A stretch of 62,514 nt of DNA, counting the filler, from Globobulimina sp. (taxonomy: Eukaryota), in NCBI GenBank assembly GCA_003354225.1. It is 31 parts of 31 records of this genome, joined end to end, with 100 filler letters (N's around TTAATTAATTAA, not from the genome) between each part and the next. Parts side by side here need not be neighbours in the genome. Positions count along the whole stretch, not along the records: positions 14,148 to 16,068 come from PIVH01010581.1; positions 16,169 to 18,089 come from PIVH01010582.1; positions 18,190 to 20,109 come from PIVH01010583.1; positions 20,210 to 22,129 come from PIVH01010584.1; positions 22,230 to 24,149 come from PIVH01010585.1; positions 24,250 to 26,169 come from PIVH01010586.1; positions 26,270 to 28,189 come from PIVH01010587.1; positions 28,290 to 30,209 come from PIVH01010588.1; 23 more parts are not named here. One strand, given 5' to 3'. Numbering within the stretch: the stretch's first letter is position 1; the number at the start of each line of letters is the position of its first letter. Under the pieces are notes generated by a model. It had not been told where the DNA came from, searched no databases, and worked only from the letters and a program-made list of their open reading frames with translations. This document shows, in pieces, positions 14,743-54,435 of this stretch. The translations under genes were made by a program, and so were the position numbers.

Positions 14743-14753
14743 TATCCTTGCAC
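14743..14753 (+). promoter_or_regulatory. TATCCTYGCAC motif copy
   Basis: TATCCTTGCAC; gene context unclear. Confidence 0.35.
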
Positions 14754-14795
14754 GTAATATGTACAACAACAGTTTATGACCCATCCACACATAAA

Positions 14796-15575
14796 TCAAC
14801 AACAACAATGGCTCCAACTTATGATGATCAACAAACTGAATTTCGAAATGGAATCTTTAAATACGCGGATTGAATATAATGGTCCGCATTTATGACCTTT
14901 TGCATGCAATTCATCGTTTAAAAATAATGTGTTTTTGAATTTGGTCGGTTCCCGGTACATACAATAACGATGCAATTTACATGAATTATCACACAAAACC
15001 ATTTTAGGAGCTTCATCATCGGGATACATCATCATTATTAAAGAAAACATATCATTTACTGATTCTGGATGAGCTAAAACATGATCTCCAATGATTTCTT
15101 CATGTTCTAAACATTTTACAACTATCAATCCATTTGACATCTGACCGTATGTGTTATAATATTTATTACAATCACCATGTTCCATATCTGTTTCATCCAG
15201 CTTCGTATTTTTGGATCTGGTTTTCTTTGGTTTTTCTGAATTAAAATCATATGTCGGCCTTGTTTGATGTACATTATATCCATACATACAGCCGGATGTA
15301 CTCTTGGAAAATATGGTTTGATGTTGCAATTCAGCTTTGGGTATAGATGGTGATTCAGATCTGGCATCTTCTAATCCAGCAATATAATTATTTGACAAAG
15401 TGGCAATATCTTGTATTAACTCAATCCATTCAGATGGTGGTTCCTTTCCAATTCGAATAAATCCATTTATTGAATGATAAATATATGGTGAATAATCAAC
15501 AATTAATTGCTTTACATTTGGCCAATCGGAGTGCGAATACGTTTTTAATATTGTAGTCAATGAATTTGGTTGCAA
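14796..15575 (-). mobile_element. KDZ (Kyakuja-Dileera-Zisupton)-superfamily transposase fragment
   Basis: CNKYY...NGLIVVKCLEH...PESVND...VLCDNSCKLHRYCMYREP..FKNTLFLNDELHAKGHKC matches the KDZ RNase H-fold pattern (CxH, E, D-x2-C, D-x2-H-x3-H-x-C); the final E-containing helix is missing. Confidence 0.75.
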
Positions 15576-15593
15576 GATATATCGATATTTTAA

Positions 15594-15703
15594 TTACACT
15601 GTAATGAACTGTTTGTAATGATTGGTTGAATTTTGTACATGTTTGTTACAATCAGTTGATTGCATGAAATGATCATTTTTGTATCATTTATATCATTACA
15701 ATA
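15594..15703 (+). repeat. Dispersed repeat, copy 2
   Basis: Similar to 14431-14568; abuts the 5' break of the transposase frame. Confidence 0.75.
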
Positions 15704-15722
15704 TGTTTATTACAGCAACATA

Positions 15723-16068
15723 CATCATATCAATCACATGTATCTCATCATCAATGATGAATGGAACAAAGCTTTTTTTATTTTTGAATGCAGCATCCCT
15801 TAAAACCTCTGAAAACATAAAACTAGCATTTTTTATGCAATTTAGGATCATATCATAATGGGGTTTTTTTATATCTTTGACAAGTTTATTCTGAATACAG
15901 GTTGTATTCTGTTTGCTGATTCTCAAAATGTAAATAGTTTTGTTGTTATCATTCTGAAAAAATGCCAGTTTTATGTTTTCAGAGGTTTTAAGGGATGCTG
16001 CATTCAAAAATAAAAAAAGCTTTGTTCCATTCCTCATTCATGATGAGATACATGTGATTGATATGATG
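15723..16068. mobile_element. Inverted repeat / MITE-like element (arms ~15723-15833 and ~15958-16068)
   Basis: About 110-bp arms that are reverse complements with a few substitutions; spacer ~125 bp; right arm cut by the contig end. Confidence 0.65.
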
Positions 16069-16440
16069 NNNNNNNNNNNNNNNNNNNNNNNNNNNNNNNN
16101 NNNNNNNNNNNNTTAATTAATTAANNNNNNNNNNNNNNNNNNNNNNNNNNNNNNNNNNNNNNNNNNNNTTAAATATTAAATATCCAAAAATTAAAATATC
16201 AATGCAACAAACAAGTGATTATGATGGTGACAGGCAAGATTTATTAATTTTTGACTGTGTGTGATTGTCTTTTATTAAATGGTTTGTATGTCACGTGTTA
16301 TTTCTAAATCTTCATGTTTCATTTGTATGTCTATTATTAAACAAAGTGTATGAATTAAATGGACACAGAAACACCAAAGAAATCACTTGCAGCTCCATCA
16401 TTTGGTAATATTTTCTTCATAGATTGAGCATTTACTGAGG

Positions 16441-16790
16441 ATGACGGCAGCTGTTAATATCGGAAAATATTCGAATTCGCCAGATAGCATTGAAAACAAC
16501 AAAAAATCAGCACATGTGCCAATAACAAGTAATATTTGTAAATATGGCACAAATTCAATGCATGGCATTATAATGATTTGTATTGGTACAGTGATGTATG
16601 GTGTATTAGGCACAATAGTTCGTTTATCGATGCTCGGCGGAGATCGCGTCCCTTATAATTCAAACGCCGCATTAGTAACAGCAGAATGTGGCAAATTGGG
16701 TGTACTGTAACAGCTATTTTATTATTTTATTTGCAAGGTATTGCTGGTGGTATTAAGTCAATTGTTGTAGCTGCTGTATTTTTATATAAA
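16441..16790 (+). pseudogene. Nucleotide-sugar transporter (SLC35A-like) N-terminal fragment
   Basis: TM segment followed by VPYNSNAALVTAECGKL (Y...AV...E..K motif); the rest of the gene is missing. Confidence 0.45.
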
Positions 16791-17246
16791 TCACCAAAAA
16801 AATATATGTAATTTATTACCTGTTGTCCAGTGCTTATTTTTCATCTAAACGCTATTAAAAAACTGTTTTGAATTGTCATGTCGTCCTAACTTTACATCCA
16901 TAGTCCATACATCATGCATCATAATTTGGCTTTCACCGCCATTCCATTCCATTCCATTCCATTCTTCATAATTGCAAGTTTTCACCGTTTTTATCTTTAA
17001 GCTTACTTACTCGAGTTCGATCGTCGCTTGTCAACGATTAATTTAACAATTTCATTGTGGTGATTTGTATACAAGTTTATATATTCTTATCAGATCATCA
17101 CAAGCTAGGTTTAGAAATCGACACAAACACAAAAAAGGTACATAACATCACATCATCTCTACGTGTCTTAGTGTGCAAATTATTAAAACAACTTAATTCA
17201 AACCCAAACCAAATAGCTACCAAACATTTCTTTATAACTTACAACC

Positions 17247-18089
17247 ATGAATCCAACCACACCAATACAGCCACAACAAGCTCAAAACATGCAACAAAAC
17301 GCATCAACACAACAACAACAACCACAAAACCCACAGCAATTCTCATTAAATCTATTCGAGGCACAACAATTAGCAGTCCAACAACAACAACAACAATTAA
17401 ATACAGTGAATCACATCTCTATACCACCCGCATTACAGCCATTGTCATCGCCATCCAATCCCAACTCTGATCATTCACACTATAATTTTTACCCTCCGCA
17501 TCCCACAAACAATGCGAATTTGCGCAATAATAAGAATAATAATAATAATTCCAATAATGAGCCACCGCAAGCCGCCGTCTTACAAGATTTTCCTGCCATA
17601 TCCTGCCGAAAGAATGGGTATTCCCCGCCTTCCTCAGCCAATGACAACATAGTAAACAGTCCAAACTCGTCCAGTAACAGTGGCAACAACAAACATCCCA
17701 GTTTTGATTATAAACTGTTAAGTCGCAGATTGCGCGATCAATTACCAAATAAAGAGCTGATTTGGAGCGAAAAGGCCAATCAAAATGAACGCGTCTTCGA
17801 ACAATTAGATCGGCCCTTGGTCGAAGCCTTGTTATTACCCAAACATAGACCGCAAATCTTGCAATACGAGCAACGCATTATTGACTTTCTAGTATCTGAG
17901 GAATGGTCGTATAGGTTCCCTGCCAATCTATCGTCGTTCAATAGGTTATTACTGCACCGCTTGTCTGAGACATTCAAATTAGACCATCACGTGGAATATG
18001 TCGGCAATGAGAGGTCGCAAATGGAGAAAAACCACAGAGGGCTGCGAGACGACCAAAATAAGGCGGTGACTATCTACAAAATGGAGAAG
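17247..18089 (+). CDS. R3H-domain RNA-binding protein (R3HDM/encore-like), 3' partial
   Basis: Q/N-rich N-terminus, then RPQILQYEQRIIDFL...YRFPANLSSFNRLLLHRLSETFKLDH (RxxxH). Confidence 0.85.
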
Positions 18090-18189
18090 NNNNNNNNNNN
18101 NNNNNNNNNNNNNNNNNNNNNNNNNNNNNNNNNTTAATTAATTAANNNNNNNNNNNNNNNNNNNNNNNNNNNNNNNNNNNNNNNNNNNN

Positions 18190-18635
18190 TATTGTATGGG
18201 TCCTATTATTTGCCCTCTTTCAATCTATTCCAAGAGAGCTATGCTAGTATGGATGCTGAAAAAATAAATTTAAATGGAACTGGCCATTTTACACAAAATC
18301 CGGATGACATGGAACAATTTTTTAAAAACAAAAATGATTATAAAATAAGATGGAAATCTTGCGATTTTGAAGCTGGCGATATATTAATATTTACCATGAG
18401 AACTGCGCATATGTCGTCTCTTAATCAGAGCAAAAAGAATAAAGTGAGAATTTCATGTGATACACGATGGTTAAATGCAAATGAAACTGCGGATCATAGA
18501 TTTGTTGAAAACAAACAAAAAAAATTAATGGGACCTGGAATGAAATTCGGTTTACATAATACTGATGATGATCAGATGGAGCATGATAAGAATCAAGTTA
18601 CTATCAAACAACTCAGGCAAAAATGGGGAATTTAA
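18190..18635 (+). CDS. Phytanoyl-CoA dioxygenase (PhyH)-family 2OG-Fe(II) oxygenase C-terminus
   Basis: DFEAGDILIFTMRTAHMS...RISCDTRW (distal His and 2OG-binding Arg). Confidence 0.75.
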
Positions 18636-18662
18636 ATTTTATCATCAATCATAAATTTTTTG

Positions 18663-18673
18663 TATCCTCGCAC
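18663..18673 (+). promoter_or_regulatory. TATCCTYGCAC 3' motif
   Basis: TATCCTCGCAC, 27 bp after the + strand stop at 18635. Confidence 0.55.
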
Positions 18674-18705
18674 TCAGTGTATAATTTGTTTGAAGATCCC
18701 CTTTA

Positions 18706-18717
18706 TGTGCGAGGATA
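18706..18717 (-). promoter_or_regulatory. TATCCTYGCAC 3' motif
   Basis: TATCCTCGCACA on the - strand, ~260 bp downstream of the - strand PH gene stop at 18978. Confidence 0.5.
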
Positions 18718-18977
18718 GGAAAAATAGAACCTTATGGCATATGGACAAATGATGAATATTTGTACATAGTACTTTTTTAACGCAAACTTTTTTTAATTCT
18801 CTTCGCAAAAACATTTGGGTTTATATTATCTCCTGAAGTCCTAAACCCAGCTTTGTTTCAGCAATCTGTGAGTCTTGGAATCTGACTTAGTAACTAAAGT
18901 AGCAATATGTCGCACACCCACATGATTGCTGTGACAATGAATTCGAAATTGTTGTAAAAGATGGTACAGTAACAGTA

Positions 18978-19852
18978 CTATTGATTGTCATCGTTAAAAC
19001 ATAATTCGTAAATAATTGAATACCATTCCTCTCTTTCCGTACTTGATGGACATAAAAACTTCCACTGCCTTGAATGCGTTGTTATATCTAACTGATTTTT
19101 CCCTGTTTTAATAACTTGTTTTGCCTCTTTTAAATCGACTACACCGCGATGCATTTCATTCAAACTTTTATAATAAAACATCTGTTTATTTTCATACAGT
19201 TTAAAATATCTTTTTTGAAACGATTTATTGAATAAAGCTCCTTTTTTCATCATCCAACCCTCCCTTAATATGATTGTATCATTATTTATTTTATCTATAT
19301 AAATATTACTATATTTCATTACAATTTGTATTAAACAGTACATTTATAGCGCATACCAATTGTTTCAGTTTTATGTTTTGTCTGCAATGCGTTAAATGAG
19401 TCAACTGCCTTTGCGATATTTTTAACAATCTTTGAGGTGATATCATTCTCCAATTTATCATTTAGTTTTTCTTCAATTTCTGGTGGTTTATAACTATCTT
19501 TTATATGTCCATCAATTTCGATATCATCTGGATTTTGTACTGTATATGTTGTCGCATCATGATCATTATGGTCATCATCACTCGATTCCAACATTGATAA
19601 ATTGCAGAATTCACTCAAATCAAATTGAGAATTATCATTTTTTGGAATCACAGGAATAACAACATGTACATCATCAGGATTTACATCATTTTTATTGTTG
19701 TTACTATAATTAGCAAATTGTTCATTTACATGAGTGTCTGTGTTATTCTCATCACTAGATTCCAATATTGACACATCCATAAATTGTGTTACATCAAATC
19801 CATCGTTACAATTTATTGTATTATTATTATTGTTACAATCTAGTGTTGACAT
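18978..19852 (-). CDS. PH-domain protein with acidic N-terminus
   Basis: LREGWMMKKGALFNKSFQKRYFKL...RGVVDL...EREEWYSII; intron 19295-19356 joins the two ORFs in frame. Confidence 0.88.
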
Positions 19853-19889
19853 TCGAAGAATATGTATTTTTGAAGTAAACACTCACAGC

Positions 19890-20109
19890 ATGTCACAAAA
19901 GACCTGGATCTTTCTGGATCCGTTAAAATGTCCCTGCTATGCAGCACCATGTATGTAGTTGCATAACTCAGCATAAGTATACATAAAACAGATATTTATG
20001 AATTAAATGAACATATATATATAAACGTATATAGGTTTACTAAATGATAAATATGTAGTACTTGTAGGTGACAGTGATAAAGGCAAGATTTATAGTTGTA
20101 ATTTAGAAG
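19890..20109 (+). CDS. Kelch-like repeat fragment (3' partial)
   Basis: MSQKTWIFLDPLKCPCYAAP, intron 19951-20034, then CLLNDKYVVLVGDSDKGKIYSCNLE. Confidence 0.4.
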
Positions 20110-20209
20110 NNNNNNNNNNNNNNNNNNNNNNNNNNNNNNNNNNNNNNNNNNNNTTAATTAATTAANNNNNNNNNNNNNNNNNNNNNNNNNNNNNNNNNNN
20201 NNNNNNNNN

Positions 20210-36650: not shown

Positions 36651-36663
36651 GTGTGCAAGGATA
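36651..36663 (-). promoter_or_regulatory. TATCCTYGCAC 3' motif
   Basis: TATCCTTGCACAC on the - strand, 45 bp after the - strand stop at 36709. Confidence 0.55.
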
Positions 36664-36708: not shown

Positions 36709-37531
36709 TCATTTATTTTTGATATTGCTTGAAGCCAAAAAGTCAGTAGTTATCATTTCAAAATTACTGTATGATGTATCTGAGTGTGAATTGTTATTTA
36801 TACTGTGGCTATGCGATGATACTTCAACAACGTTTTTAATGACCATCGTATAATTTGTATGGTTGCCATCTGATTCATTGCTTGTTTGGTAATTTGGATG
36901 TCGATTGTTTTCAAGATTTTGTATCTGGTGTGCTATTTTATTGATATTTAGTCCATCCTCAGTGATGACTCCGTCGCAGATGGGACATAAAATGTGTTCG
37001 ATTTGTTTTCTCCAATCTTGTGTTAAATGAAAATTCATTTTAACAAAGCCATCCATCCATATATTGTAACAATTAGAGCAAATTATATGTTGCAAGGCGC
37101 AGTTTTCCTTATTTTTCTCAAATATATCATCCGATGCGGTCAATTCGACTGAACAGCCATCACATAAAGAATATCCTCGTTGTGCCTGTTGTCGCTCTAC
37201 ATCTCCAAATTCAAGCTCTTCTTCCACCATTTCATATGTCTGTAAATCATACACAGTACACATCACATGTTATGATATAGCAAACGTATTAACTGATAAC
37301 TGATTTATATTTGCCAACACGTGACAGAATGTAATGTGAAACAATAAGAAATATGATTCCAATGAAGAATGTAACAATCAGCCACATGATAGAAATTCCA
37401 TAAACTAAATTCAATACCAAACAAGTCATCGGAACGAAAAAAGTCCACAGTACAAAAATCCAGCGAATCCAGTCCCATGTGTTACAATCAAGATCCACTT
37501 CCACATACGAAGGAACAGCACCAGGCATCAT
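36709..37531 (-). CDS. Two-TM RING-finger protein
   Basis: Two TMs, putative intron 37240-37318, then CDGC...CALQHIICSNC...CPIC. Confidence 0.6.
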
Positions 37532-37608
37532 TATGTTGTACTGTTGATAGACTATGATAGTTCAACGAAAACTGTAAAAAAAGTTCAGCTCGCTTCCAAG
37601 TCCTAACC

Positions 37609-38388: not shown

Positions 38389-38813
38389 GTGTAATCATAA
38401 CTCTTGCAGCAACAGGAACAGAGACTAATGGTAATAGTGTTATTAGTAATAACGAGACCAACGAGAAGAGAGCAGTAGCTTATCCTTTTTCGATTCCTCA
38501 ATTTGCAATAATAGATCCTGAAAACATTCCTATAAACAAAGAAATTGCTTGCGTAATATATGATATTGATCAAATATTAAAAGAGTTGGAATCTTTACTG
38601 GATATTTTTGATACTAAATGGGTGAATATCAATACATGTAAACAATTTAAAAATATATTAAAATCATACAATCTGTTATCCATTGCCGATGATGATAATG
38701 ATATAGAAATGGAAAATAAAGATAATAACAATAATATACAACAGGATGATAATTCCGATGATATTTCTGATATAAAATGGATTGAAGATATTTGTGGATT
38801 CCATCATGACTAA
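38389..38813 (+). CDS. Iron-containing alcohol (butanol) dehydrogenase-like segment joined in frame to an unrelated acidic/Asn-rich tail
   Basis: VIITLAATGTETNGNSVISNNETNEKRAVAYPFSIPQFAIIDPE (38391-38522) matches the Fe-ADH TxAxTGSE...P..aiiDP motif; the metal-binding half is absent. Confidence 0.55.
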
Positions 38814-38925
38814 TGAGGTTTATTGCAATTATGTAACTTTTTGATTTGTTGACCTGTAGTACGTTTTACAGACCTTCTGAGAGTTTTTTTTTATAGATTT
38901 AATTTGCTGTTATCCTAAACTAACA

Positions 38926-38937
38926 ATCCTTGCACAC
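38926..38937 (+). promoter_or_regulatory. TATCCTYGCAC 3' motif (first base differs)
   Basis: ATCCTTGCACAC, 112 bp after the + strand stop at 38813. Confidence 0.5.
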
Positions 38938-39053
38938 AGAATTATACAAATAACGATGTTCTTTGCTCACTATAACCATTTTTACGATAAAGCAAAACCA
39001 CAATTTAACTCAATTATGTAAATCTAAATTATACAGTCTCTGCTATTTCACTA

Positions 39054-40307
39054 TCATAGGACAAACGCAGGTTGAATTGTCGAGACAAATGCTTTTTGAA
39101 ACTGTGAGCAACTAAATTTACGCGCACAATAGTTCCTCGCAGTTTGTCGCAACTTTAACCATCCATTTCCATTATCATAGTGATCAAACACTTTTTCAAA
39201 GCATTTGGCATATTGATCAACAGTCGTACATAAAAATCCTCTCTCACCCGACCACATTTTCCCTTCCACATCATTTTTATTGTTAATATTTGCAATAATA
39301 TCAGATAATGGACCGCCGGAACAATGACCAATTGTAACTAAACCAGCAATCATATATTCAACTAAACAAATGCCAAAATGTTCATCTTCCATGGTATGTA
39401 AACCAATAAACGATTCTTGAAATAAGGACAATAATTTATTCCATTCCAAATCCTCTTTAATCAATACATATTCTCGCAAGTTATATTTGCCAATCAATGT
39501 TCTCAATTTTGTCACCCTTTTCCGATCGGAGATATCTCGAACACCGCCAACCATAATTAACTTTACATCATTATATTTGGGCTTACATTTCTTTCGAAAT
39601 TGATAAAATGCCTCAATCTGCAATTTATGATTCTTTTCTGGTCGAAATTGTCCAACGGATAAAATTATTTTCTTCCTTTGTTCAAACTTAAATTTTTCTA
39701 AATATTCACTGTTACCACATGGCGGATATACTGTGCATAAAACGCTATTTCTCGAACGGTAAAATATAGATTGGATATGGTTATGTGTCCAGGTTGAATT
39801 TACCATGACAATGTTGGCAAAATATCCACAAAATCCATATAAAAACGCAAATAATTTATAATAATATAATTTCAATTGTTTCCCATAGCTATTTTGCGCA
39901 AATGTTGCGTTGTTATTATACATTATTTTGCCCTGAGTTACACGTTGGAACATATCATTTGATATCGTTGGGTAATGAGTATAACTAATCACTGTACATC
40001 CAAATACAATCCATGCCACTGGATAAGTAAATGCATATCCTTGCAAATTACACACATGATGACACATCATAATAATTGATATTATAAATTTAAAATATTT
40101 GAATCATACCTGTTGTATCGATGAAAATGTGAGCTGGGAATTTAAATAATCCTTCGCATGCAAGCAATATTGCTGACAATGACTGGAGTAATAATGTTGC
40201 AAATGGATGATATTTTGGCTGAATTATAAAGTGGGATTTGAGTGGGATGAGTTTCAAATATTTTTCATTTTCTTTCGATATTTTAATATTAAATCTTGAA
40301 TCTATTT
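39054..40307 (-). CDS. ALG11: GDP-Man:Man3GlcNAc2-PP-Dol alpha-1,2-mannosyltransferase (5' partial)
   Basis: TLLLQSL, IFIDTTG|YAFTYP across intron 40040-40109, YTHYPTISNDM, VNSTWT, VYPPC, GQFRPEKNH, EHFGI, HCSGGP. Confidence 0.95.
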
Positions 40308-40478
40308 NNNNNNNNNNNNNNNNNNNNNNNNNNNNNNNNNNNNNNNNNNNNTTAATTAATTAANNNNNNNNNNNNNNNNNNNNNNNNNNNNNNNNNNNNN
40401 NNNNNNNCCCCCCAAACTCCCCCCGTTGGCAGGTATGTACAGTATGGTAGGTAGTATGCACTGCACACACTGGCATAC

Positions 40479-40577
40479 CATATGACATACATTACAGTAG
40501 TATGCGCATGTGTGCATATACTGACACACCATATGACATGCAGTACAGTAGTATGCACATGTGTATGTGTACTGACT
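40479..40577. repeat. ~51-bp tandem repeat (about 2 copies), followed by a (AAATACCC/AAAACCC)n tract at ~40597-40672
   Basis: CATATGACATRCAKTACAGTAGTATGCRCATGTGT repeated. Confidence 0.6.
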
Positions 40578-40823
40578 AGAGTGGAAACAAATAGTAAAAA
40601 CCCAAATACCCAAAACCCAAACCCAAATATTTACCCCCCAAATACCCAAATACCCAAACCCAAAACCCAAATAGTGAAATTTCGTGGAAAAATGATGTTT
40701 TTCCAAAAAGTTTTGCCTATATCTCCATATAGCATTGTTTTGTAATGAAATATAATGCTATTTAACAGCCAGATATCCATTTCTGATTACACAGAGCTTC
40801 AAAAAAGTCAACTTAGGAAAACT

Positions 40824-41092
40824 CTAAGACTCATTCAATTGACCAATGGTCTAACTATAATTCCTTTTAGAATCATCCAATTGACCAATGGTCGAAGTAG
40901 GAAACCTCTAAGAACATTCAATTGACCATTGGTCTAAGTATAATTCCTCTAAGACTCATTCAATTGACCAATGGTCTAAGTATAATTCCTCTTAGACTCA
41001 TTCAATTGACCAATGGTCGAAGTAGGAAACCTCTAAGACTCATTCAATTGACCAAAGGTCTAAGTATAACTCATTCAATTGACCAATGGTCA
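40824..41092. repeat. ~42-bp minisatellite, ~7 copies, two unit variants
   Basis: ACTCATTCAATTGACCAATGGTC plus either TAAGTATAATTCCTCTAAG or GAAGTAGGAAACCTCTAAG. Confidence 0.9.
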
Positions 41093-42559
41093 ATGGTCCA
41101 AGTTCATTATCAAAACTTCATTGTTATTATTTAGATTCTCGAGTTTCCAAATGAACAAGGTTTCTTTCCATACCTTTACAAGGAACCAGGAGTCGGGAAA
41201 AAATATGACTTTGCAGAGAACCAGAAAAACAGAATAAAAATCATATAAAACCTTTGCAACCAGAAAAACAACAGAAGAAAGGCTAAGTTAAGTTGTCGAT
41301 ATATCTTAGTTAAACTATTTAATTACTTTTTTGGTATTGTATTCCACTTGAATTCTCTTTGTAAAGCTGTTAGACATAGAATTTTATTTTTAATTCAAGT
41401 TCGTTTTTGCGATCTGAGACTAAAATACAAATATTTTTATTTTGAGTTGTTTTATGCAATTTAGATAAGTTCATTTAATCAATCTAGAACTGCAATTCAT
41501 AGAATTTCATTGTTTTATGGTTTGCACAAAAGTCAAAAATACATATTAATAACTGTACATAGCTATTTTGTATGATTTTGTACTATAGCACTTCCTTAAA
41601 AACGTTTGTCAGAATGTAACATTAGCAGTTTTTAGCTGTTTTTGTACCATAACCTTTTTGTACCATAACATAAAAAGGAGTGTTTGAATGGGACATTAGC
41701 ATATTTTGTACGTTTAAGCCATTTACTCTACTGTGTTCTTTGTTGTAGAGATGCACATATCTCATTTTATATGATTGTATCTTTTTGTACTGTGTAAAAT
41801 GTACTGTTCAAACGACGCACATGCTGTTTTTCAACCTCTAAGCCCATTGAACGGTCATTGCACGAAAATACAACGTTCAATGCACTCTGTAGGGACGTGC
41901 AATGAAAACCCAAGTTCAAAGTAAGAGCTTAGTGCTTTTTGGATGATCGAAAAATCATCTTAAATTTTCTTAGAGGTTGAAAACTGGCCTATCGCTCATA
42001 TAAAACAAGTGTTTTTGGCAGTGGTGCAATGGTGCGATTGAAGAATTATTGAACGGTTTTCGTCATGTCACGAAATGTTAATAAAATTATATTCCTCTCA
42101 AAAAAACACACCAAAAAATGCGCAAAAATCCCCTTAAAAGGCCTTTTTCTGCCTTTTTTTATCTGTCATTGAAAAAAACACCGATATTTCACGTTTTTTG
42201 GTACCCATTGCACTGGGTGCCTGGGTGCCATTTAACTTCTCAGTCTGATTTGTGCACAGTGTTCCTTCCTGGGTGTATTGTTAGGATTTTCCCTCAACTG
42301 ACTAGCTATGCTATATCACTTTTGGANNNNNNNNNNNNNNNNNNNNNNNNNNNNNNNNNNNNNNNNNNNNTTAATTAATTAANNNNNNNNNNNNNNNNNN
42401 NNNNNNNNNNNNNNNNNNNNNNNNNNTGGCGCACCAGAGACTCGCCAATAACATGTTCGTTCTAAATAGAGATTGTATAATCGGGAGTTGCGCTTTTTCT
42501 TTGAATTGTTTGTGATAAGGTTTTTACACAGTTTACTAGTAAACCGGCTGTAACTGACC

Positions 42560-44215
42560 ATGTCACGTTTGGTGCGGTCACTTGTTGGTAAATCAAAGTC
42601 ATTTAATTATAATAACCATATTTTTAATCGATGGACATTAGATCAACCCTTGTTATCAATAACGGCTCTTCGAGCAAAATTTAATTCATTGTCACTTCAC
42701 TTACCTCTCATTGAGTTGCCATCAATTCAATTGCCATCAATTCAATTACCATTAATTAAACATGAAACAAAGCGCAAACAATATCAGGATAAAAACGAGT
42801 ATGAACACAAGAAAAACAAAGAAAACAAACAATGGTCATATATGAATATGGCGTATATGACATTGGGAGCTTACATAAGTATAGAAATATTATTTTATTT
42901 TCGATGTAAATATTTAGAATATTATGCAAATAATATATCAGTGGATATTGTACAACCAAATATATCACAGGAAAGATGTGTAAAATTATTGGATTTTGCG
43001 TTAAAATATGCTGGTTTATATGATGGCGGATATGAGGGATGGCTCAAATTATGGTTTAATGACTGCGATGTATTTAAAGATTTAAAATCTGAAAACATTT
43101 TAGAGTTATTTCATTGGGGGTTTTTTGTGGAAAATTATAAAAAATATGATGAGGCTGTCAATGATAATGAATTAAAATGGAGGGAAGAATTTGTAAGAAA
43201 TGGTTTACTCAAATTGCAAAATGAAATGAATTATACGTTTCCAGATGGATATAATGATCAAATCAATGATAAATTTGCCAATAAAAGACAAATTAACAGT
43301 GATTATCATTCATTTTTATTATATTTTACGATCACAATGGCTCAGATTTGGGGTGATTTATTATTAAAATATTATTTTGGATTTAAATATGAATGGAAAA
43401 ATGATATGAAAATTTGGTATAAAAACACTGAAAATAATAATGCGAATTCGTCCGAGCCTAAAAACGCTTTGTTGTTTTTGCATGGAATTGGTATCGGATT
43501 AGGTCCATATTTTTATTTCTTAAAAGAATTATTAAATAATAATAATAATAATAACATGAATACGTTTTATATGATTGAGATACCAGAAATTACAATGAAT
43601 ATATTACATTTATTACCGTGGCCATTGTCAAATTCATCCTATATTACAAATAAATTACCGTCACAGATTAGTGATTATGTTGACACATTTCATGAATTGG
43701 ATGCTAATAATAATTATAATTGGACAATAATGGGTCATTCATATGGTTCTATGATAGCGTCGAGTATGTATTTACAAATGGAAAATGAGGCAGAAACAAT
43801 TGAACCAAGATTAATATTAATAGATCCGGCATGTTTTTGCTTATCGCACCCATCCACAGTGAGCGCCTTTGTGACAAATATTGATGATATTATCTATAAC
43901 GATGAGTTTATGAATGGAAAAATAAATGCACGGAAACTATTTGCCAAAGAATTAATGATTTCATGCAATTTGCGTAAATATTTTCATTGGTATGATTTAG
44001 TTTTATATCCGGAACAATTAATTAATGATAATAATAATAAACATATTGTTATTACTTCTGAAAAGGACAACGTTCTTCCTTTGCAATTAATTAATAAAGG
44101 TATTAAAATTGTAAATAATAATGATTTGGAAATTATACATCACACAATTGATACTGGGCATGGCGAATGGATTTGGAATGAGAAATATATTAAAAAAATC
44201 ATCAGCACGTTGTAA
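42560..44215 (+). CDS. Membrane-associated alpha/beta hydrolase
   Basis: LFLHGIGIG, nucleophile motif GHSYG, LIDP, KDNVLP (Asp), TGHG (His). Confidence 0.85.
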   Translation: MSRLVRSLVGKSKSFNYNNHIFNRWTLDQPLLSITALRAKFNSLSLHLPLIELPSIQLPSIQLPLIKHETKRKQYQDKNEYEHKKNKENKQWSYMNMAYMTLGAYISIEILFYFRCKYLEYYANNISVDIVQPNISQERCVKLLDFALKYAGLYDGGYEGWLKLWFNDCDVFKDLKSENILELFHWGFFVENYKKYDEAVNDNELKWREEFVRNGLLKLQNEMNYTFPDGYNDQINDKFANKRQINSDYHSFLLYFTITMAQIWGDLLLKYYFGFKYEWKNDMKIWYKNTENNNANSSEPKNALLFLHGIGIGLGPYFYFLKELLNNNNNNNMNTFYMIEIPEITMNILHLLPWPLSNSSYITNKLPSQISDYVDTFHELDANNNYNWTIMGHSYGSMIASSMYLQMENEAETIEPRLILIDPACFCLSHPSTVSAFVTNIDDIIYNDEFMNGKINARKLFAKELMISCNLRKYFHWYDLVLYPEQLINDNNNKHIVITSEKDNVLPLQLINKGIKIVNNNDLEIIHHTIDTGHGEWIWNEKYIKKIISTL

Positions 44216-44266: not shown

Positions 44267-44279
44267 TATCCTCGCACAC
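44267..44279 (+). promoter_or_regulatory. TATCCTYGCAC 3' motif
   Basis: TATCCTCGCACAC, 51 bp after the + strand stop at 44215. Confidence 0.55.
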
Positions 44280-46364: not shown

Positions 46365-46468
46365 NNNNNNNNNNNNNNNNNNNNNNNNNNNNNNNNNNNN
46401 NNNNNNNNTTAATTAATTAANNNNNNNNNNNNNNNNNNNNNNNNNNNNNNNNNNNNNNNNNNNNGCAA

Positions 46469-47359
46469 CTATAGGGTTGACCTGTCAACAGTGTTTGATA
46501 AGAACGATCTTACGCGTTGTAGCGCGTCGACGGACTCGGGACCACCTATCTTGGCAAATCCGTGAAAGCCGTGAATCATCGCAGATACGATGTCCAGTTC
46601 AACGTTCACGCCCTGTCTTAGTGCCTTGGAGGCGATGACCTTCGCGTGCGCGGATGTGGGATCAATTTCACCCGCTTGAAGAAGCAGTGGAGGTAGACCA
46701 GTAAAATCACCATAGACGGGTGATACTAGAGGGTTTTGCAAACGGTCTTTTCCGGCGTAATCAATGCCTCGCTGATGACTGTATGCTTGATGATACAATG
46801 GATCTTTCGCTTCGTTTTTTTCAGACAAATCAAACCAACCGCACAGACTAACACCGCAACCAGGTAAGTCAACATTATCATCGCGAAGCTTTAACAATGA
46901 AGCAATCACAAGACCACCACCGCAGGAGTCACCAATAAAGCCGATTGACTTTGCCGAATAACCTTCAGCAAGTAAGCCTATATAAGCATTGCAACAATCC
47001 TCCAGCGCCGCTGGAAAACGATGCTCGGGTAACAGCCGGTAGTCGACCATAATGACCCGTGCATCCAACAATTGCGACAACATTTCCCCATAAAATAAAA
47101 AGCCGTCGCCACCGGCGGCGATAAAGGCGCCGCCACGAAAGTACAATAGTGTTCGCGTTGTATCTTCTGCTATGTTAGCAGCCCGCAGTACAGCACAGCG
47201 TACGCCATTAAAAGGCTGCCAACTTAGTTCAGTGTCGTCCTTGATAGGATGGCCGTGTACGGCCTCCATTTTGTCCGTCGCCGTCTCAAGATCATCCTCT
47301 GGCAGCGTCAGTTGGCCGTCCAACAACGAGACAATATCCTGATAGAGTTGACTGGGCAT
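46469..47359 (-). CDS. Bacterial-type HSL-family esterase/lipase (Abhydrolase_3)
   Basis: YFRGGAF, VDYRLLPEHRFPAALED, GDSCGG, SPVYGDFTGLPPLLLQAG, MIHGF; no introns, visibly higher GC; probable start MPSQ at 47359 (alternative 47404). Confidence 0.88.
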   Translation of the reverse strand: MPSQLYQDIVSLLDGQLTLPEDDLETATDKMEAVHGHPIKDDTELSWQPFNGVRCAVLRAANIAEDTTRTLLYFRGGAFIAAGGDGFLFYGEMLSQLLDARVIMVDYRLLPEHRFPAALEDCCNAYIGLLAEGYSAKSIGFIGDSCGGGLVIASLLKLRDDNVDLPGCGVSLCGWFDLSEKNEAKDPLYHQAYSHQRGIDYAGKDRLQNPLVSPVYGDFTGLPPLLLQAGEIDPTSAHAKVIASKALRQGVNVELDIVSAMIHGFHGFAKIGGPESVDALQRVRSFLSNTVDRSTL

Positions 47360-47700
47360 TGGCTTCTCTGCGTGACGGTTTAATGATTTACAGTTCGTCG
47401 GCATAGGTGTTTTGAAGCCTTAAAAGGCCATTTTCAGGGGCAAAATTGACCCTGTAAGAAACAGCTGGCTCAGGAAACTCGTAGCTTTTGTTGCTTCCAA
47501 TAATCTTCCGGCCTTTCGCCTTAATCTCGAGCCTTTTATTGTAGCCTCAATAAATGATTTGTTCAAAACTGTGGCACCTATGCTTGACTTAACAATATTA
47601 ATCTGTGTCATGTAACTCATGGAAATAAAAACAAAATGATTGCTAATAAAATATTTTCCAAATAATCAACAATTTATTAGCGAATTATCAATTACCATAA

Positions 47701-47961
47701 GTGTCACAATATCCCTTATTTGGCAATAAATATCAGGAAAAATATAACCTTGGCAGCATTATAAAATTTCTGGCCAGAGAAAAATCTGACTTGGAAAAGC
47801 AGATTAAATATTTTCTTTTATGGATTAACAAGCTTCTGTCTTATTATCAAAAAGACCTTAAATCAGTCAATTATAAAAACATAAAAGACTTTCTGGCACT
47901 CTTGAATATGAAAATAATGAGGGATAGCAGCTTCGGTAAGCTTTTTTTCCACATCAGTTAA
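47701..47961 (+). pseudogene. Possible integrase N-terminal (SAM-like) remnant
   Basis: KFLAREK..LEKQIKYFLLWINKLLSY...IKDFLALL resembles the Y..W...F.......I..FL..L pattern of tyrosine recombinase N-domains; no catalytic domain. Confidence 0.3.
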
Positions 47962-48659
47962 ACATATCACAAACTGTTAATTAAAAACCTGATTTTAATA
48001 TTTCAGCTGATCTGTATCGACGTACTTCGATATCCACTTGCAGGTATTATGTTATAATCTTGAATATTCAGGTAGTTAAAAAGCCTGAGATACGGTTATC
48101 TGATCTGAGGTTTTGTCCAACCTGTACTATATTAAAGTAATCTGGTGGCGAGTCGTTCAGTGTGCCATCTGTGATTAAACGATCAATCCCAAGGCCGCTT
48201 TTTTTAATTTTTTTGCGGGTGGTATTCGCAAATACTACCACAGTGCCATCGCTACCAGTATAAAAATTAGAAACAATGCTATTACAGGATAAAGAAAAAT
48301 ACTGATAATTAATAAAGAAAAGCCGGCCAACAGAAAAAACATTCCTATGCTCATCGAACGTGTTCTCGCATTGAGCCGATCTTNNNNNNNNNNNNNNNNN
48401 NNNNNNNNNNNNNNNNNNNNNNNNNNNTTAATTAATTAANNNNNNNNNNNNNNNNNNNNNNNNNNNNNNNNNNNNNNNNNNNNTTTCATGCATGGTTTCA
48501 ACTTTTTTTATTGTTTTCTTTCTGTTTTCAACTTACTTTTAATGTTTTTTTCTTGTATATATATATATATATATATATATTCATAGCGCGTGATTCATTG
48601 AATTTAGAGTATACAAAAACTTTAAGTCGGAACTTTCATAAACTTTCGAAGCAAAGATC

Positions 48660-50105
48660 ATGTGTACTAGGTACTGCAGTATAATCAGGCAAACAAGTTC
48701 AAACCATTCAATGCTGCACCAAATCAGAGGAGTCAGGTCAGTGGTTACTAATAAAATTGATGAAATTAAATATGATTATGACACAGTCATTGTAGGTGGA
48801 GGTATCGTCGGTTTATCAACAGCGAGAATATTGCAATCTAGATATCCTTCAATGAAAATTGCTTTATTGGAGAAAGAATCATTATTATCCCAACACCAAA
48901 GTGGAAATAACAGCGGAGTAATACATTGTGGTATATACTATAAATCAGATTCCCTAAAAGCAAGATTTTGTGTGAAAGGTAATCAACAAATTTATGATTA
49001 TTGCAATGCTAAAAACATCAAATATAAAAGAAGTGGAAAATTAATCGTCGCAGTCAAACCCTCTGAAATATCACGTTTACATAAATTATATGAAAACGGT
49101 TTAGAAAACAAAGTCCCGCAGCTAACATTACTCGAAAATACATCGGAAATACATGAAATCGAGCCATTATGTGATGGATTGCAGGCAATTTGGTGCGAAA
49201 CAACCGGAATTGTAAACTTTGCACAGATTGCAAATTCATACGGCAATGATTTTGTTGGTAATGGCGGTAATATTCATACAAATTACGAGGTTACAAATTT
49301 CAGCTCAATCAATAGAATTTTGAGCAAAGATTTTATAAACGGAATATTGGTACATATTAAAAATGGAGGAAATAGGAATTTTTTGTCATGTAGACACGTT
49401 ATAACATGTTGTGGCGTTTACAGTGACCGAGTCAGTCAATTCAGCGGTTCCTCAGAGTATCCGTGTATTGTTCCTATCCGTGGCGATTACTTGAAAATAA
49501 AAAACAAAGAATTAAATAATAAATTGAGTGGGGTTAATATATACCCAGTGCCGGACCCATCTGTTCCATTTTTAGGCGTCCATTTTACGCCAATGCTTAA
49601 CGCGGATACTGACGAAATTGAATATATTTTAGGGCCCGGAGCAGTGCTTGCATTCGGAAGAGAGAATTATTGCTTTACAAAGAATATTAATATTGGTGAT
49701 ACATTTGAAACTATTTCACGTATTGGATTTTGGAAAATGGTTGGCAAGCATTGGAAATTTGCATTTAATGAATTTTATAAAGATATTGTATATAAAAAAC
49801 AGATTGATGAATTGCGGAGATATGTTAATGAATTGGATTATGACGATGTTGAAAGATCGATGAGTGGAATAAGGGGACAAGCAATGGATGAATATGGCAA
49901 TTTAACAGATGATTTTTGTATTGAAACAGAGTGTAAACATGCACACAATTCGAAAGGAAGGTTTTTAAATGTTCGCAATGCGCCAAGTCCGGCATGTACA
50001 TCTTCAATGGCTATCGGGGAAACTATTGTTGATACTGCAACAAAGGAATTTAAATATTACAATAGATTTAAAATTAGTAAAATTAGTAAAAATAGTTTAA
50101 ATTAA
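48660..50105 (+). CDS. L2HGDH: L-2-hydroxyglutarate dehydrogenase, mitochondrial
   Basis: Presequence-like N-terminus; IVGGGIVG, HQSGNNSGVIHCGIYY, IYPVPDPSVPFLGVHFT, GIRGQAM, VRNAPSPACTSS. Confidence 0.95.
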   Translation: MCTRYCSIIRQTSSNHSMLHQIRGVRSVVTNKIDEIKYDYDTVIVGGGIVGLSTARILQSRYPSMKIALLEKESLLSQHQSGNNSGVIHCGIYYKSDSLKARFCVKGNQQIYDYCNAKNIKYKRSGKLIVAVKPSEISRLHKLYENGLENKVPQLTLLENTSEIHEIEPLCDGLQAIWCETTGIVNFAQIANSYGNDFVGNGGNIHTNYEVTNFSSINRILSKDFINGILVHIKNGGNRNFLSCRHVITCCGVYSDRVSQFSGSSEYPCIVPIRGDYLKIKNKELNNKLSGVNIYPVPDPSVPFLGVHFTPMLNADTDEIEYILGPGAVLAFGRENYCFTKNINIGDTFETISRIGFWKMVGKHWKFAFNEFYKDIVYKKQIDELRRYVNELDYDDVERSMSGIRGQAMDEYGNLTDDFCIETECKHAHNSKGRFLNVRNAPSPACTSSMAIGETIVDTATKEFKYYNRFKISKISKNSLN

Positions 50106-50125
50106 AAATACAGGACAATTCTATG

Positions 50126-50402
50126 TCAAATTGTCAACAAAGGTGTTGTTTCTTGACTTTCTTCAGAAACATGAATACATTTCAATATTCTTAAATAATT
50201 GTTTCTGTTGATTGTAACGTAGCCAATCAAGCCTAAAATAGCCACAAATGAAACTGCTATTAACCAAATGGATGGATTTGTATTGTACGTATCCACATTA
50301 TCATCATTCCAAATATAACAATTATTACATTGTCCAATCTGTTCATCATCACCGCATAAATCATAGCCGATTTTGGTATCACCAATGATTTTATCATTCA
50401 CA
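50126..50402 (-). CDS. C-terminus of a single-pass membrane protein
   Basis: TM IWLIAVSFVAILGLIGYV; ETTPLL dileucine-type sorting motif. Confidence 0.55.
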
Positions 50403-50622
50403 NNNNNNNNNNNNNNNNNNNNNNNNNNNNNNNNNNNNNNNNNNNNTTAATTAATTAANNNNNNNNNNNNNNNNNNNNNNNNNNNNNNNNNNNNNNNNNN
50501 NNCGAAAATTGGGAATAATACACAAAAAATCACTGTTGCGCGGTGGAATCTGGCCGAAGGCCAGAATTTTCGAGATATTTGGTGCTTTGGACAGTGAAAT
50601 TGCCATTGGCTAGAAAGGCGAA

Positions 50623-50714
50623 ATTCCCTGACTTTTACCAAAAATTACTGAATTCCCTGACTTTTCCCTGACACCTAATCAAATTCCCTGACTCCCTGAC
50701 CGTGACGAACCCTG
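50623..50714 (-). mobile_element. Possible DNA transposon terminus (CAGGGTT... with subterminal TCCCTGAC repeats)
   Basis: Five TCCCTGAC copies end at ...GAACCCTG; partner terminus not seen. Confidence 0.4.
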
Positions 50715-52832
50715 GGTTAGGACTTACGTACGACAGACACCACTGCCCCTTTTAACAGTTGCCAGTTTTAGAAAATAAGGCTGGGCTATATTAATACCTA
50801 TATACTAATTCTGTAAGCTAATTCTAATTCTAAAGCTAATGTAATACTAATTATGTATGTAAGCTATTTTCGTTTTAACTTAAAAAACTTTATGATTAAT
50901 TTCTAAAAAAAATTTAAAAAATTAAATTAAATATATACCTATATATTAAAATACCTCAAGGATTTTCGTCGTTTGTAGCATCCATTCTGTTTCTTCCTCC
51001 ACGCCCTTCACTTGTTATTATGCCACTCATCCCAAAAACATAATAATAAATTATTTGAATTGAATGAATAATAAAATAAAATGGCCATGGCATTCCCTGA
51101 AACGACAAGAACAAACAGAAAACACAGCAAAACTGCCTAATAATAAAAATAATCTTTTGTTACCGCAGTGCTTGTATCTTCTTCCTTCTTTCTTCTATTT
51201 ATATATATTTAATAATTAATTATTTAAAGTCCGCGGATCGGAGAGGAGAAGAGGTAAAAAAAATCGATAATCATTGGCGCAGTTGAAAACAACGCCCAAA
51301 GTTACGGTAGGTACAATCGACGCACACAAACATTAAAATATTAGAATACGGATAATTCAAACAAATATAGACTAAATTACGTTAATATAGAATTCATTTT
51401 AATTATTTTAGTTCTCTAACATGTCATGAAAGATCTCATATGTTAAATAGCACACTAAGATATTAAAAAATCAGCCGGCGCAGTTTAAATGGAGACATTC
51501 TAATCTCAGTACCGTATCGCCGTACCGTACCGTATGATGCATTCTAATCTCAGGATCGCTCCGTATCGCCGTATCGCTCTTTATTTTTTTAACGGTTATT
51601 AGAGCAGTAGTATTTAGGCTCATTAGACAGCTTATTTTTTAACGCGCTGCGACCTAAAATAAAATAATTATAATGTTAATTAGTTTACTTTGTAAATATT
51701 TGAAAAGTTATATTATGTAATTGCAGACTAGGTAGGTATGAGTAAATATGGTAATCGTCAACAATGCAAGAAAATCTAGCGGTTTTCGACTGCTTCACTT
51801 TCGCACTACCACTGTTGCATTATCAGTCGATCCTGCACTTTTTGATGACCGACTACCTCCTCCTCCAGAATGAAGCTATGTAGGAGGCTGGAGAGAGCAC
51901 TTTCCCCCAATAAGTTAGCGTGCCAAAATAAGTCTCTCGGCATCACTAAAGGGTTAGATTAGATTATATTTCAAGCCCAGAATGAGTAGTCTAAATTTTA
52001 TGCAGTCAGTAACGATAAACCGTTTAAATGTTACCAACTCTAAAATTGTTTTGTAAATGCGAAAACGCCCAGAGCAAGGCGTCAAATTTAACTAATCGAA
52101 TAACATTTGCTTGTCAATACATATTTGTACACTTTGCTTTTGATAATCGTGGCTGCCTCATGATCAGATCCGAATTGAATGTCAATAATATGTCATAGTC
52201 TGTAGGTTTCATTCCAATGACGAAACCGCGAAAAACCCCACATAATGCAAATGCAATGTAGTTCAACCTCAAATATTATTATAGCTAAAAAATGGCGACC
52301 TCGACTGACTTGAGTAATAGACATTGTGTTACGCTCCATGCTCACGAATTGTCAGGTCAGACAAATAACATATAGCTCCTCGTAGGGTGGGTGGGCGGGA
52401 ACGTAATACCAAATCTGGGTANNNNNNNNNNNNNNNNNNNNNNNNNNNNNNNNNNNNNNNNNNNNTTAATTAATTAANNNNNNNNNNNNNNNNNNNNNNN
52501 NNNNNNNNNNNNNNNNNNNNNACTGATCCAAGCTCATTGCAACACCAATAAACAACAAAATAATTAATGTTATGCTTTTTTTCATTGCTAATTATTTAAT
52601 TTGTTTATTATTCTTAACTGTGGGATTTAATGAATTTTTTCTTGAATTAGAAATGTGGGATTTAGTGTATTTTTTTTCGTGTAATTAATGCGGAGTTTAT
52701 ATAATTATTCCTATTTATACTTCTGTTCTGTGCATAATCTGTTTTGCCGATAATTTAATATTACAGCTGCTATTAAAGTGAATGATGAATTCGAGGATGC
52801 AGATCGATATCAGGCAACCATCAATGTTCTTA

Positions 52833-53063
52833 TTATCCAAATAAATCCATGCCATAATTCGTTATGATAATGATAGCGGTGAGATGATTGTAAAAGGAGA
52901 CATGAGCTTGATGTAAATTCAAAACCTTTCTTTTTGATGTAAAAAGTCGACAATCCTCATTTTGTTCCCACTCACAAGCCACTCTTTCCATCAAATAATA
53001 GAGTTTCAAATAAAATTCTTGCGCGTCTTCCTGTGTTGTTTGATAAAATGGCGGATCCCACAC
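52833..53063 (-). pseudogene. Ubiquitin-specific protease (C19) fragment
   Basis: QTTQEDAQEFYLKL (QxDAxEF box); surrounding frames interrupted. Confidence 0.4.
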
Positions 53064-53320
53064 TATCTAGTCATGTATATGCAATTTATATTTCATTTGA
53101 AAAATATCTCTTGCATAAAATTATGGTACTTATAAAAACCTATAAGAAGCATAAGAAATGTTATAGAATCCATGAAATACATATCTCTTTGTGTTTTGCA
53201 ATTTTTTTATTTCTTTTTTAATGGAAAATGTGTGTTTATCTGAGAAAATATTGTATACACAAACATAGACAACAGAAACACAAACACAAAATAGTTTTTT
53301 GGTTGTGAAAAATAAAAAAT

Positions 53321-53379
53321 GTGCTGATAGGGATTTGAACCCAAATTTTCTTTAATTAGATTCTTTTCTAAACCAACAC
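53321..53379 (-). pseudogene. Degenerate tRNA-like relic
   Basis: Acceptor-like stem GTGTTGG/TCAGCAC and T-arm GGGTTCAAATCCC; D and anticodon arms absent. Confidence 0.35.
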
Positions 53380-53854
53380 CAAAATGCAAAATTGCTTTTA
53401 TCAGATAATAAAGTGCCAACCTTTGGGAAAAATTCAAGCTGATCATCGAAAAATATAACACCATATCTATCATAACCGATTCTTAGTTGTTTTAATGCTG
53501 TAATTGTGGCAGAAATAGTTTATCCCATTTGTTACCAACATAGAGCCCGATTTATCCACAATAAATATAACACTGCGTGGTATCATCGCCATCTCTTTGT
53601 TGTCAGTGTCGCCCTCCGCAGCTGCAATATTCTGAGCAGCCATTCCATTGAATTACTATTTCCAATTCGTTGTTTGCTGGTAATTGAATGTCATAAATGC
53701 CTCTTTTATCCGTAACCTCTAAGTCAAATAGGGCTCTCCGATATGTACTGCAAATTTCCCGCTGTTTGAAAAGTTTTTTCTTTTTTTCATGATCTTATCG
53801 AACACCTCGGCAAAGTTTATTTTTGTTTTTTATGCGTTTATGCCATCGTTGCAT

Positions 53855-53866
53855 TGTGCAAGGATA
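53855..53866 (-). promoter_or_regulatory. TATCCTYGCAC motif
   Basis: TATCCTTGCACA on the - strand; upstream gene not resolved. Confidence 0.45.
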
Positions 53867-54395
53867 GTGAGTAATATCTGACTGTTAACTGTCAGATCAA
53901 TAATAAAAACACATAAAAAACAAACAAAAATATACTATCATCAAAATTTGTTAATTTATAATGATGACCATGCATTTGTTTGTGTTGGCATGCAAAAGGC
54001 CATCAAATTTATGTTATTCCCCCCAGAATTCCATTTATTTCCTGATGTCTTACCACCATACATTTCCCGCATACCTGATGTTTTACCAGCCAAATAACCC
54101 AAAAGTGAGTGCTGTATTTTCTGTGCAATTCCATGAATGTGCCAATGCCATCAATGTGCCTCAGTTTAAGGCATTTTCGTAAGCGTATTTTTTGATAAAT
54201 ATCACATTGGCTCTTATCCCAATCAATGTTTTGTAGATTATAATCTCACTGATTTGGATTATCTCTAAAATCCAGACTGAAAATTCAAACAATCCAATAA
54301 AAAACATTGTGATATATGCAATTTTAATTGCTGTGTTTTGTTGTCCGCATTTTCGCATCTAAATAATATTAAAGTGTTTTGTTGCCGTATATATA

Positions 54396-54435
54396 TATCC
54401 TTGCACACTATCTGTATATATATATCCTTGCACAC
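54396..54435 (+). promoter_or_regulatory. Tandem pair of TATCCTYGCAC motifs
   Basis: TATCCTTGCACAC at 54396-54408 and 54423-54435, each preceded by (TA)n. Confidence 0.45.

Follow-up and report, generated by a model that had tools for sequence, protein, structure and literature searches.

A sharply defined DNA word, TATCCTYGCAC, lies beyond gene ends in contigs of Globobulimina sp. and may mark the end of some transcription units

Introduction

How the genes of a foraminiferan are brought to their end is a question raised by a short word, TATCCTYGCAC (Y being C or T), which recurs in DNA of Globobulimina sp.; to our knowledge, nothing is established on how foraminiferal genes start and end. 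The stretch that we analysed (hereafter the window) counts 62,514 bases, spacers included, of the assembly GCA_003354225.1 and is made of 31 contigs of 1918-1921 nucleotides (nt) each, sorted by length and separated by spacers of the form N44-TTAATTAATTAA-N44. All the statistics on the word rest on 59.5 kb of sequence, to which public sequencing runs were added for contig 20.

A sequence-only reading of this window had pointed to nine copies of the word, had described them as often co-oriented with a gene and lying just 3' of it, and had proposed a 3'-end processing or termination signal, a protein-binding site in 3' untranslated regions (UTRs) or a DNA-processing signal comparable to the ciliate chromosome-breakage sequence. 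We asked whether the word stands out from chance, where it lies with respect to genes and which function it may serve.

Results

The word recurs beyond chance

In the window, we found TATCCTYGCAC as eight exact copies and one copy with a single mismatch at a likely real site, and these nine copies are spread over 6 of the 31 contigs (nos. 8, 10, 19, 20, 22 and 27; Table 1). All nine had been listed before, with coordinates that are right within 1-2 nt, the small shifts arising because an optional AC had been counted there. When one mismatch at most is allowed, the window contains 10 matches for 1.17 expected and none of 100 shuffles reaches 10; the 9-mer core TCCTYGCAC is found 10 times for 0.31 expected, and TATCCTTGCAC alone five times for 0.02-0.03 expected under Markov backgrounds. 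The tenth match, at 40036(+), was missing from the earlier list and is probably the single chance near-match, or about that, which is expected.

Since the motif had been picked post hoc, we ranked all 11-mers that contain one wildcard and no fewer than five G/C, counting places as independent if they were more than 100 nt apart. In this unbiased scan TATCCTNGCAC ranks at the top, with six independent places. In 100 windows simulated with a Markov-3 model, the best word reaches at most four places in 75 cases, five in 25 and six in none. The earlier observation of a recurrent word holds. The next words, TCANTCGATCC and CAAANCCATCC, have five places each, which is the noise ceiling of these simulations. 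Counted by distinct contigs alone (five), the result is not significant, 9 of 40 simulations reaching five; the case therefore leans also on the paired copies, on the wildcard being C or T only, on the near-copy at 38925 and on the location bias described below.

The post hoc choice of the motif and this contig count are what speaks for chance, or for an assembly or adapter artefact. Against them stand the six independent places that no simulation attains, the additional paired copies, the variation confined to C/T at one position, and a bias towards non-coding DNA and 3' ends that artefacts do not predict; moreover, among the matches listed, strings of the word appear in the literature only within unrelated primers or oligonucleotides. 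We hold such an origin for very improbable. TATCCTYGCAC is a genuine, sharply defined cis-element.

Table 1. Copies and near-copies of TATCCTYGCAC in the window, with the ALG11 stop (ORF, open reading frame)
Feature	Coordinates	Strand	Context
Exact copy, T variant	14743..14753	+	42 nt past stop of minus-strand ORF 14799-15593 (candidate KDZ-transposase-like), antisense
Exact copy, C variant	18663..18673	+	27 nt past stop of PhyH-like ORF 18192-18632, sense
Exact copy, C variant	18707..18717	-	260 nt past PH-domain ORF stop (sense); 71 nt past PhyH-like stop (antisense)
Exact copy, T variant, then ACA	36653..36663	-	45 nt past stop of ORF 36712-37269, sense
One-mismatch copy AATCCTTGCAC, then ACA	38925..38935	+	118 nt past ALG11 stop, antisense
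Exact copy, C variant	44267..44277	+	51 nt past stop of ORF 42554-44212, sense
Exact copy, T variant	53856..53866	-	contig 27, without clear gene model
Two exact tandem copies	54396-54406, 54423-54433	+	27-nt duplication; TATATATA before each
One-mismatch match TATCCTTGCAA	40036..40046	+	overlaps 3' splice site of opposite-strand 70-nt ALG11 intron
ALG11 stop	39054-39056	-	3' end region 38970..39056

The word occurs whole or not at all

The word is all-or-none. Copies with two mismatches are at background level (17 for about 20 expected). The half-word TATCCTY has 22 matches for 12.6 expected, nine of them within full or near-full copies, and the half-word YGCACAC has 14 for 9.7 expected, five of them within full copies; once the full copies are removed, both are at background. 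Among the exact copies only one position varies, between C and T. The three positions that follow are partly fixed (A in 7/9, C in 6/9 and A in 6/9), which gives TATCCTYGCAC-ACA. When flanks of 250 nt on each side were compared, the in-register likeness between copies was gone within about 22 nt and no longer one was seen. This bears out the earlier statement that the flanks are unrelated and that the word does not belong to a longer repeat.

Within contig 10, the copies at 18663(+) and 18707(-) form an inverted pair with a 33-nt spacer, located between the convergent PhyH-like and PH ORFs, where one copy per strand had indeed been reported. Around the single copies, inverted partners within 80 nt do not exceed what chance would give, and no RNA fold common to the copies was found. 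Folding is better than in shuffles only at the contig 10 pair (z=-2.4) and in hairpins at 53856 (z=-4.3), where the minus-strand copy is followed, 1 nt past its 3' end, by an imperfect inverted partner.

The core of the U12-type intron 5' splice site is RTATCCTT and the corresponding branch-site word is TCCTTRAC; the T variant thus has the seven letters TATCCTT in common with the former. We rejected this candidate: the base before the word is a purine in 4 of the 9 copies, TCCTTRAC has no match in the window, and copies lie beyond stop codons rather than within genes.

Copies are concentrated just beyond gene 3' ends

As gene proxies we used ORFs of at least 100 amino acids with a positive codon-usage score. 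All eight exact copies are outside these ORFs, in the 36.6% of bases that are non-coding (p=3e-4). The zones that extend 150 nt past an ORF-end stop, whichever the strand, make up 12.5% of the non-coding bases; they contain five of the eight copies (p=0.001), or four of the six independent places (p=0.003), and none of the eight is present in the zones 150 nt upstream of 20 putative start codons. The concentration just beyond gene 3' ends put forward by the sequence-only reading therefore stands. Copies are also located at transitions in base composition, T-rich sequence giving way to A-rich sequence (mean difference 0.29, p=0.006); this measure is strand-symmetric and therefore speaks to place, not to orientation.

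Considered from the side of the genes, 6 of the 22 ORF-end stops are followed by a copy within 150 nt and 7 within 300 nt. The other 15 have none within 300 nt, and 4 of these 15 have less than 100 nt of contig downstream. Since only a minority of gene ends have a copy, TATCCTYGCAC is not the poly(A) signal in general use; it probably marks gene ends for some genes.

Orientation relative to genes is mixed

Five ORF-copy pairings are in the sense orientation, at 18663 (27 nt past the stop), 36653 (45 nt), 44267 (51 nt), 38925 (111 nt, counted from a doubtful ORF with a likeness to iron-dependent alcohol dehydrogenases, Fe-ADH) and 18707 (260 nt), and these distances agree with those given earlier. 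Three pairings are antisense, at 14743 (42 nt), 18707 (71 nt) and 38925 (118 nt). The tally was made on ORF proxies, and unannotated transcripts are possible. Co-orientation with genes is accordingly not established: two of the five cases that had been assigned to the gene strand (18707 and 38925) lie between convergent ORFs, with the opposite-strand stop as near or nearer, and the one gene with homology support next to 14743(+) runs antisense to it.

The gene ends themselves are of unequal quality. In the ORF that ends at 44212, the match to a homolog extends as far as the last residue, and the sense case at 44267 is thus sound. For the ORF ending at 38813, the likeness to the Fe-ADH family is lost after about residue 47, so that it could not be validated as a gene end. 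The matches behind the former labels of RING and a/b hydrolase do exist, but they are sub-threshold in Pfam; for ORF 36712-37269 there are only sub-threshold zinc-ribbon/RING matches. Homologs of the minus-strand ORF 14799-15593 form a small family of unnamed proteins, 52-59% identical to it (best 59%, E=6e-95). The likeness stops at 14829, about 50 residues before the C-termini of the homologs, and the ORF therefore looks truncated. A search in Pfam gave no match for it; a language-model search gave, with a very high score, the lead that the family may be that of KDZ (Kyakuja-Dileera-Zisupton) transposases. On contig 27, eight of the small ORFs have nothing in Pfam, and an exhaustive search with ORF 53606-53794 returned three weak, repeat-like matches.

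ALG11 is polyadenylated without a sense copy of the word

For one gene of the window, ALG11 on contig 20, the 3' end could be followed in sequencing runs. Contigs from the runs X1-X3, which come from two studies, are 95-99% alike to the window and belong to a related strain; X4 is a DNA run. On contig 20, X1-X3 cover ALG11 only, and the uncovered interval 38389-38969, which includes the copy at 38925, is not evidence either way. X1, X2 and X3 all join 40038 to 40109 on the minus strand, skipping 70 nt with GT..AG borders (40039-40108), and X4 does not; X1-X3 thus behave as spliced RNA.

At the 3' side, the X1 and X3 contigs end at 39002 and X2 continues to 38970. In these related-strain contigs the ALG11 3' UTR carries a 14-nt insertion at 39001-39002. 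In X1, 11 nt of this strain-specific insert are followed by a plus-strand run of six T, which reads as six A in the ALG11 sense. X2 shows that the insert is genomic and has other letters next, so the A-run of X1 is non-templated; the poly(A) site of ALG11 is therefore located about 64 nt downstream of its stop. The ALG11 3' UTR has no sense copy, and the word is therefore not needed for ALG11 polyadenylation. The copy at 38925 is antisense and about 66 nt past the poly(A) site, hence outside the ALG11 mRNA. Taken with the 15 of 22 ORF ends that have no copy within 300 nt, this result does not support the proposal of a general 3'-processing signal.

Word pairs in other sequence collections

A scan of metagenomes for the inverted pair gave nine loci. 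In eight of them (L001-L008) the word is embedded in longer hairpins, L001 matching L007 and L005 matching L008. Only the ninth, L009, contains word-only pairs, at 261-314 and 572-626, with non-palindromic spacers of 32 and 33 nt. This contig of 1.85 kb has 23% GC and no ORFs; its pairs belong to a repeat of about 310 nt that is present twice, in diverged form, and no likeness to the window was found besides the word pairs. A scan of prokaryote genomes gave one locus, a long bacterial palindrome, and a scan of viruses none.

Other features of the window

Two proteins bear on the organism. The ORF ending at 44212 (42560-44212) is an orphan with just two relatives in the databases, and one of these relative clusters includes EukProt entries recorded under Bolivina argentea and Nonionella stella; for L-2-hydroxyglutarate dehydrogenase, a conserved enzyme, the identity to named relatives does not exceed 49%. 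The EukProt cluster supports the foraminiferan label of the assembly, and judged by such protein similarities the organism is of foraminiferan affinity. GC content ranges from about 27 to 42%, and neither Rfam families nor tRNAs were found in the window.

The ALG11 intron is the only verified intron of the window. At the left end of contig 20, the DNA run, identical elsewhere, has a different sequence upstream of 38558; the Fe-ADH-like piece 38389-38557 could be an assembly chimera or a structural variant. On contig 27, the minus-strand ORFs 53473-53652 and 53355-53519 resemble the start of a von Willebrand A domain in different frames (a DKSGSM metal-site-like motif, then a beta-strand-like stretch), which suggests a frameshift or a short intron; Pfam gave no match for them.

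Contig 21 has a degenerate telomere-like array at 40596-40673 (units AAAACCC / AAATACCC, about 10 copies, 69% matches) with no copy of the word nearby, as well as tandem repeats of 42 nt (40822-41069) and repeats of 51 nt (40462-40576). The palindrome TTTTGCAAAA occurs five times on five contigs (4989, 12950, 21736, 22441 and 31714) for 1.18 expected, a count reached in 1 of 100 shuffles before any correction for multiple testing. Esterase/lipase ORFs of the Abhydrolase_3 family are present on two contigs, 56560-58478 and 46465-48383, the latter being among the most GC-rich (0.42).

Discussion

TATCCTYGCAC is real, unusual, tied to gene ends and undescribed in the literature that we searched. 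In publications on polyadenylation in foraminifers and in Reticulomyxa, supplements being outside the scope, we found no described motif.

We tentatively favour, with distinctly less than even confidence, the view that the word is a terminator or boundary site recognised by a factor, readable from both sides and used by a minority of genes; both this function and the reader are what we infer. A sequence-specific factor, either a protein or a guide RNA, would recognise TATCCTYGCAC(-ACA) and, once bound, would mark or enforce the end of the transcription unit. The site would be at or just past the poly(A) site and could act on transcription coming from either side, and its users would amount to about a quarter to a third of the gene ends seen here. 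We prefer a terminator or boundary to a sense-strand processing signal because of the mixed orientation and of the ALG11 result: five sense and three antisense pairings fit a DNA-level site readable both ways, and the ALG11 poly(A) site precedes an antisense copy by about 66 nt. That the convergent PhyH-like and PH ORFs are separated by a copy on each strand also supports a terminator.

Roadblock terminators and boundary sites, such as those of the yeast Reb1/Rap1 type or the TTF-I site of ribosomal DNA, are sites for DNA-binding proteins: exact intergenic words that some genes carry past their poly(A) sites and that can halt the polymerase. The word of Globobulimina resembles them as an exact spacer word, used by a subset of genes and located past the one mapped poly(A) site. 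It differs from them in that its sequence is unrelated and that it is known here from sequence and position alone.

Several points weigh against a terminator or boundary. Termination is deduced from position only, and the 3' end that was mapped, that of ALG11, is without a sense copy. The copies 27, 45 and 51 nt past stops are nearer than the end of the sole measured 3' UTR (about 64 nt); in these genes the word may belong to the mRNA, a situation that would favour a role at the RNA level. If the inverted pair of contig 10 reflects the need for a separate copy on each strand, the action would be strand-specific. Three of the eight exact copies, those of contig 27, have no interpretable gene context, and we know of no factor that binds the word. 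Finally, the sample is tiny (six independent places in 59.5 kb), the genes are ORF proxies and the categories were set after the sites had been seen.

Some of these points would agree with a sense-strand RNA signal for cleavage and polyadenylation, or for another kind of 3'-end processing, in a subset of genes, which was the first idea of the sequence-only reading and which we rank next, though as unlikely. Such a signal would account for the sense copies 27, 45 and 51 nt past stops, the last at a gene end validated by a homolog, and for one copy per strand between convergent ORFs, and the C/T at a single position would keep the pairing with G in an RNA duplex. It fits less well with a copy at just 6-7 of 22 ORF ends, with the polyadenylation of ALG11 without a sense copy, with the copies at 14743 and 38925, antisense to their sole supported neighbour and to ALG11 respectively, and with the absence of degenerate copies, unlike known poly(A) elements. 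The sole foraminiferal 3' region analysed in PMC3079666 has no recognisable, canonical poly(A) signal, and lineage-specific 3' motifs do exist. In Blastocystis, the GU-rich word TGTTTGTT is found in about 96% of 2,419 genes, exactly 4 nt after the poly(A) site and always in sense, and tolerates up to two substitutions (PMC4159000). The likeness lies in a lineage-specific short word at gene 3' ends in a protist without a canonical upstream signal; unlike TGTTTGTT, the word of Globobulimina is seen at 6-7 of 22 ORF ends, has no degenerate copies, is of mixed orientation and, at the mapped poly(A) site, lies some 66 nt away. A post-transcriptional element of the 3' UTR, bound by a protein or targeted by a small RNA to control the stability, translation or localisation of a subset of transcripts, would explain a minority of genes, the proximity to stops and an exact word without half-sites, and RNA structure is neither required for it nor seen. 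We nevertheless give it little weight, given the mixed orientation, the copy past the ALG11 poly(A) site and the lack of an obvious common function among the motif-bearing genes. A role as core promoter or start-site element of the next gene is more doubtful still. The copy 53856(-) is 64 nt upstream of a same-strand ATG, and TATATATA precedes the copies 54396 and 54423 at a contig end; against this, none of the eight copies is within 150 nt upstream of the 20 putative starts, the divergent spacer 37270-37560 has no copy, the contig 10 copies lie between convergent ORFs and just 33 nt apart, and 38925 faces the 3' end of ALG11.

Other alternatives concern the DNA itself. The word could be the trace of a mobile element, namely the terminal inverted repeat of a DNA transposon family (KDZ-type elements or miniature ones derived from them), or a short sequence that such elements carried along. 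Terminal inverted repeats of DNA transposons and miniature elements, like En/Spm-like subterminal binding words, are exact short words, sometimes in inverted pairs. The word resembles them by its exactness, by its one inverted pair and by the copy beside the KDZ-transposase-like ORF. Indeed, exact copies without decayed relatives look like recent copying, contig 10 offers a 55-nt unit with 11-nt inverted ends, 14743 lies past a truncated transposase-like ORF with the polarity of a right-hand end, and L009 carries two word-only inverted pairs. We still find a mobile origin improbable. The sequence shared between copies ends within about 22 nt, without common subterminal sequence, and the contig 10 pair has no target-site duplication. 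An inverted partner within 80 nt is present at only one of six places, although contigs of 1.9 kb would hide distant ones. Host genes abut both sides, within 27-70 nt inside the supposed interior whichever the polarity at no fewer than three places, and a bias towards gene ends is not expected from random insertion. An equally small chance goes to another DNA-level site of 3' spacers, such as a replication origin or fork barrier, a recombination hotspot or a chromatin-organising site. This would suit a word that is exact and asymmetric and occurs in both orientations in non-coding spacers, including spacers between convergent genes; it has no direct evidence in its favour, and about one copy per 10 kb is dense for origins. 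The earlier comparison with chromosome breakage finds the least support of all, and we regard it as scarcely credible. Ciliate breakage sequences, such as Cbs of Tetrahymena and E-Cbs of Euplotes, are likewise exact non-coding words of 10-15 nt, and one contig of the window does terminate 7 nt after a copy, the second of the tandem pair (54423-54433). However, none of the 62 contig ends has telomeric repeats and only that one is near a copy, and the contigs of the window as well as a piece of the DNA run (38913-39295, across the copy at 38925) read through copies, so that neither telomere addition, DNA discontinuity nor a link with contig ends is seen here, unlike in ciliates.

Extending the preferred terminator or boundary reading, we would suggest, still more tentatively, that Foraminifera, or this lineage, possess an exact gene-end word of 11-14 nt which is read whole by a dedicated factor and acts, in a quarter to a third of the genes, as terminator or boundary. 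Candidates for the reader would be a DNA- or RNA-binding protein made of several modules, or a small guide RNA, with which the C/T position would keep its pair with G. If the word were instead the trace of a transposon, it would mark a family that inserts preferentially behind genes. If it is a gene-end site, it would mark gene boundaries in the very fragmented assemblies of Foraminifera and provide a bait for the isolation of its reading factor. It would then be an all-or-none signal, whereas the poly(A) and terminator elements of other eukaryotes are degenerate, and would offer a eukaryotic test case for termination or boundary signals that are discrete and exact in sequence.

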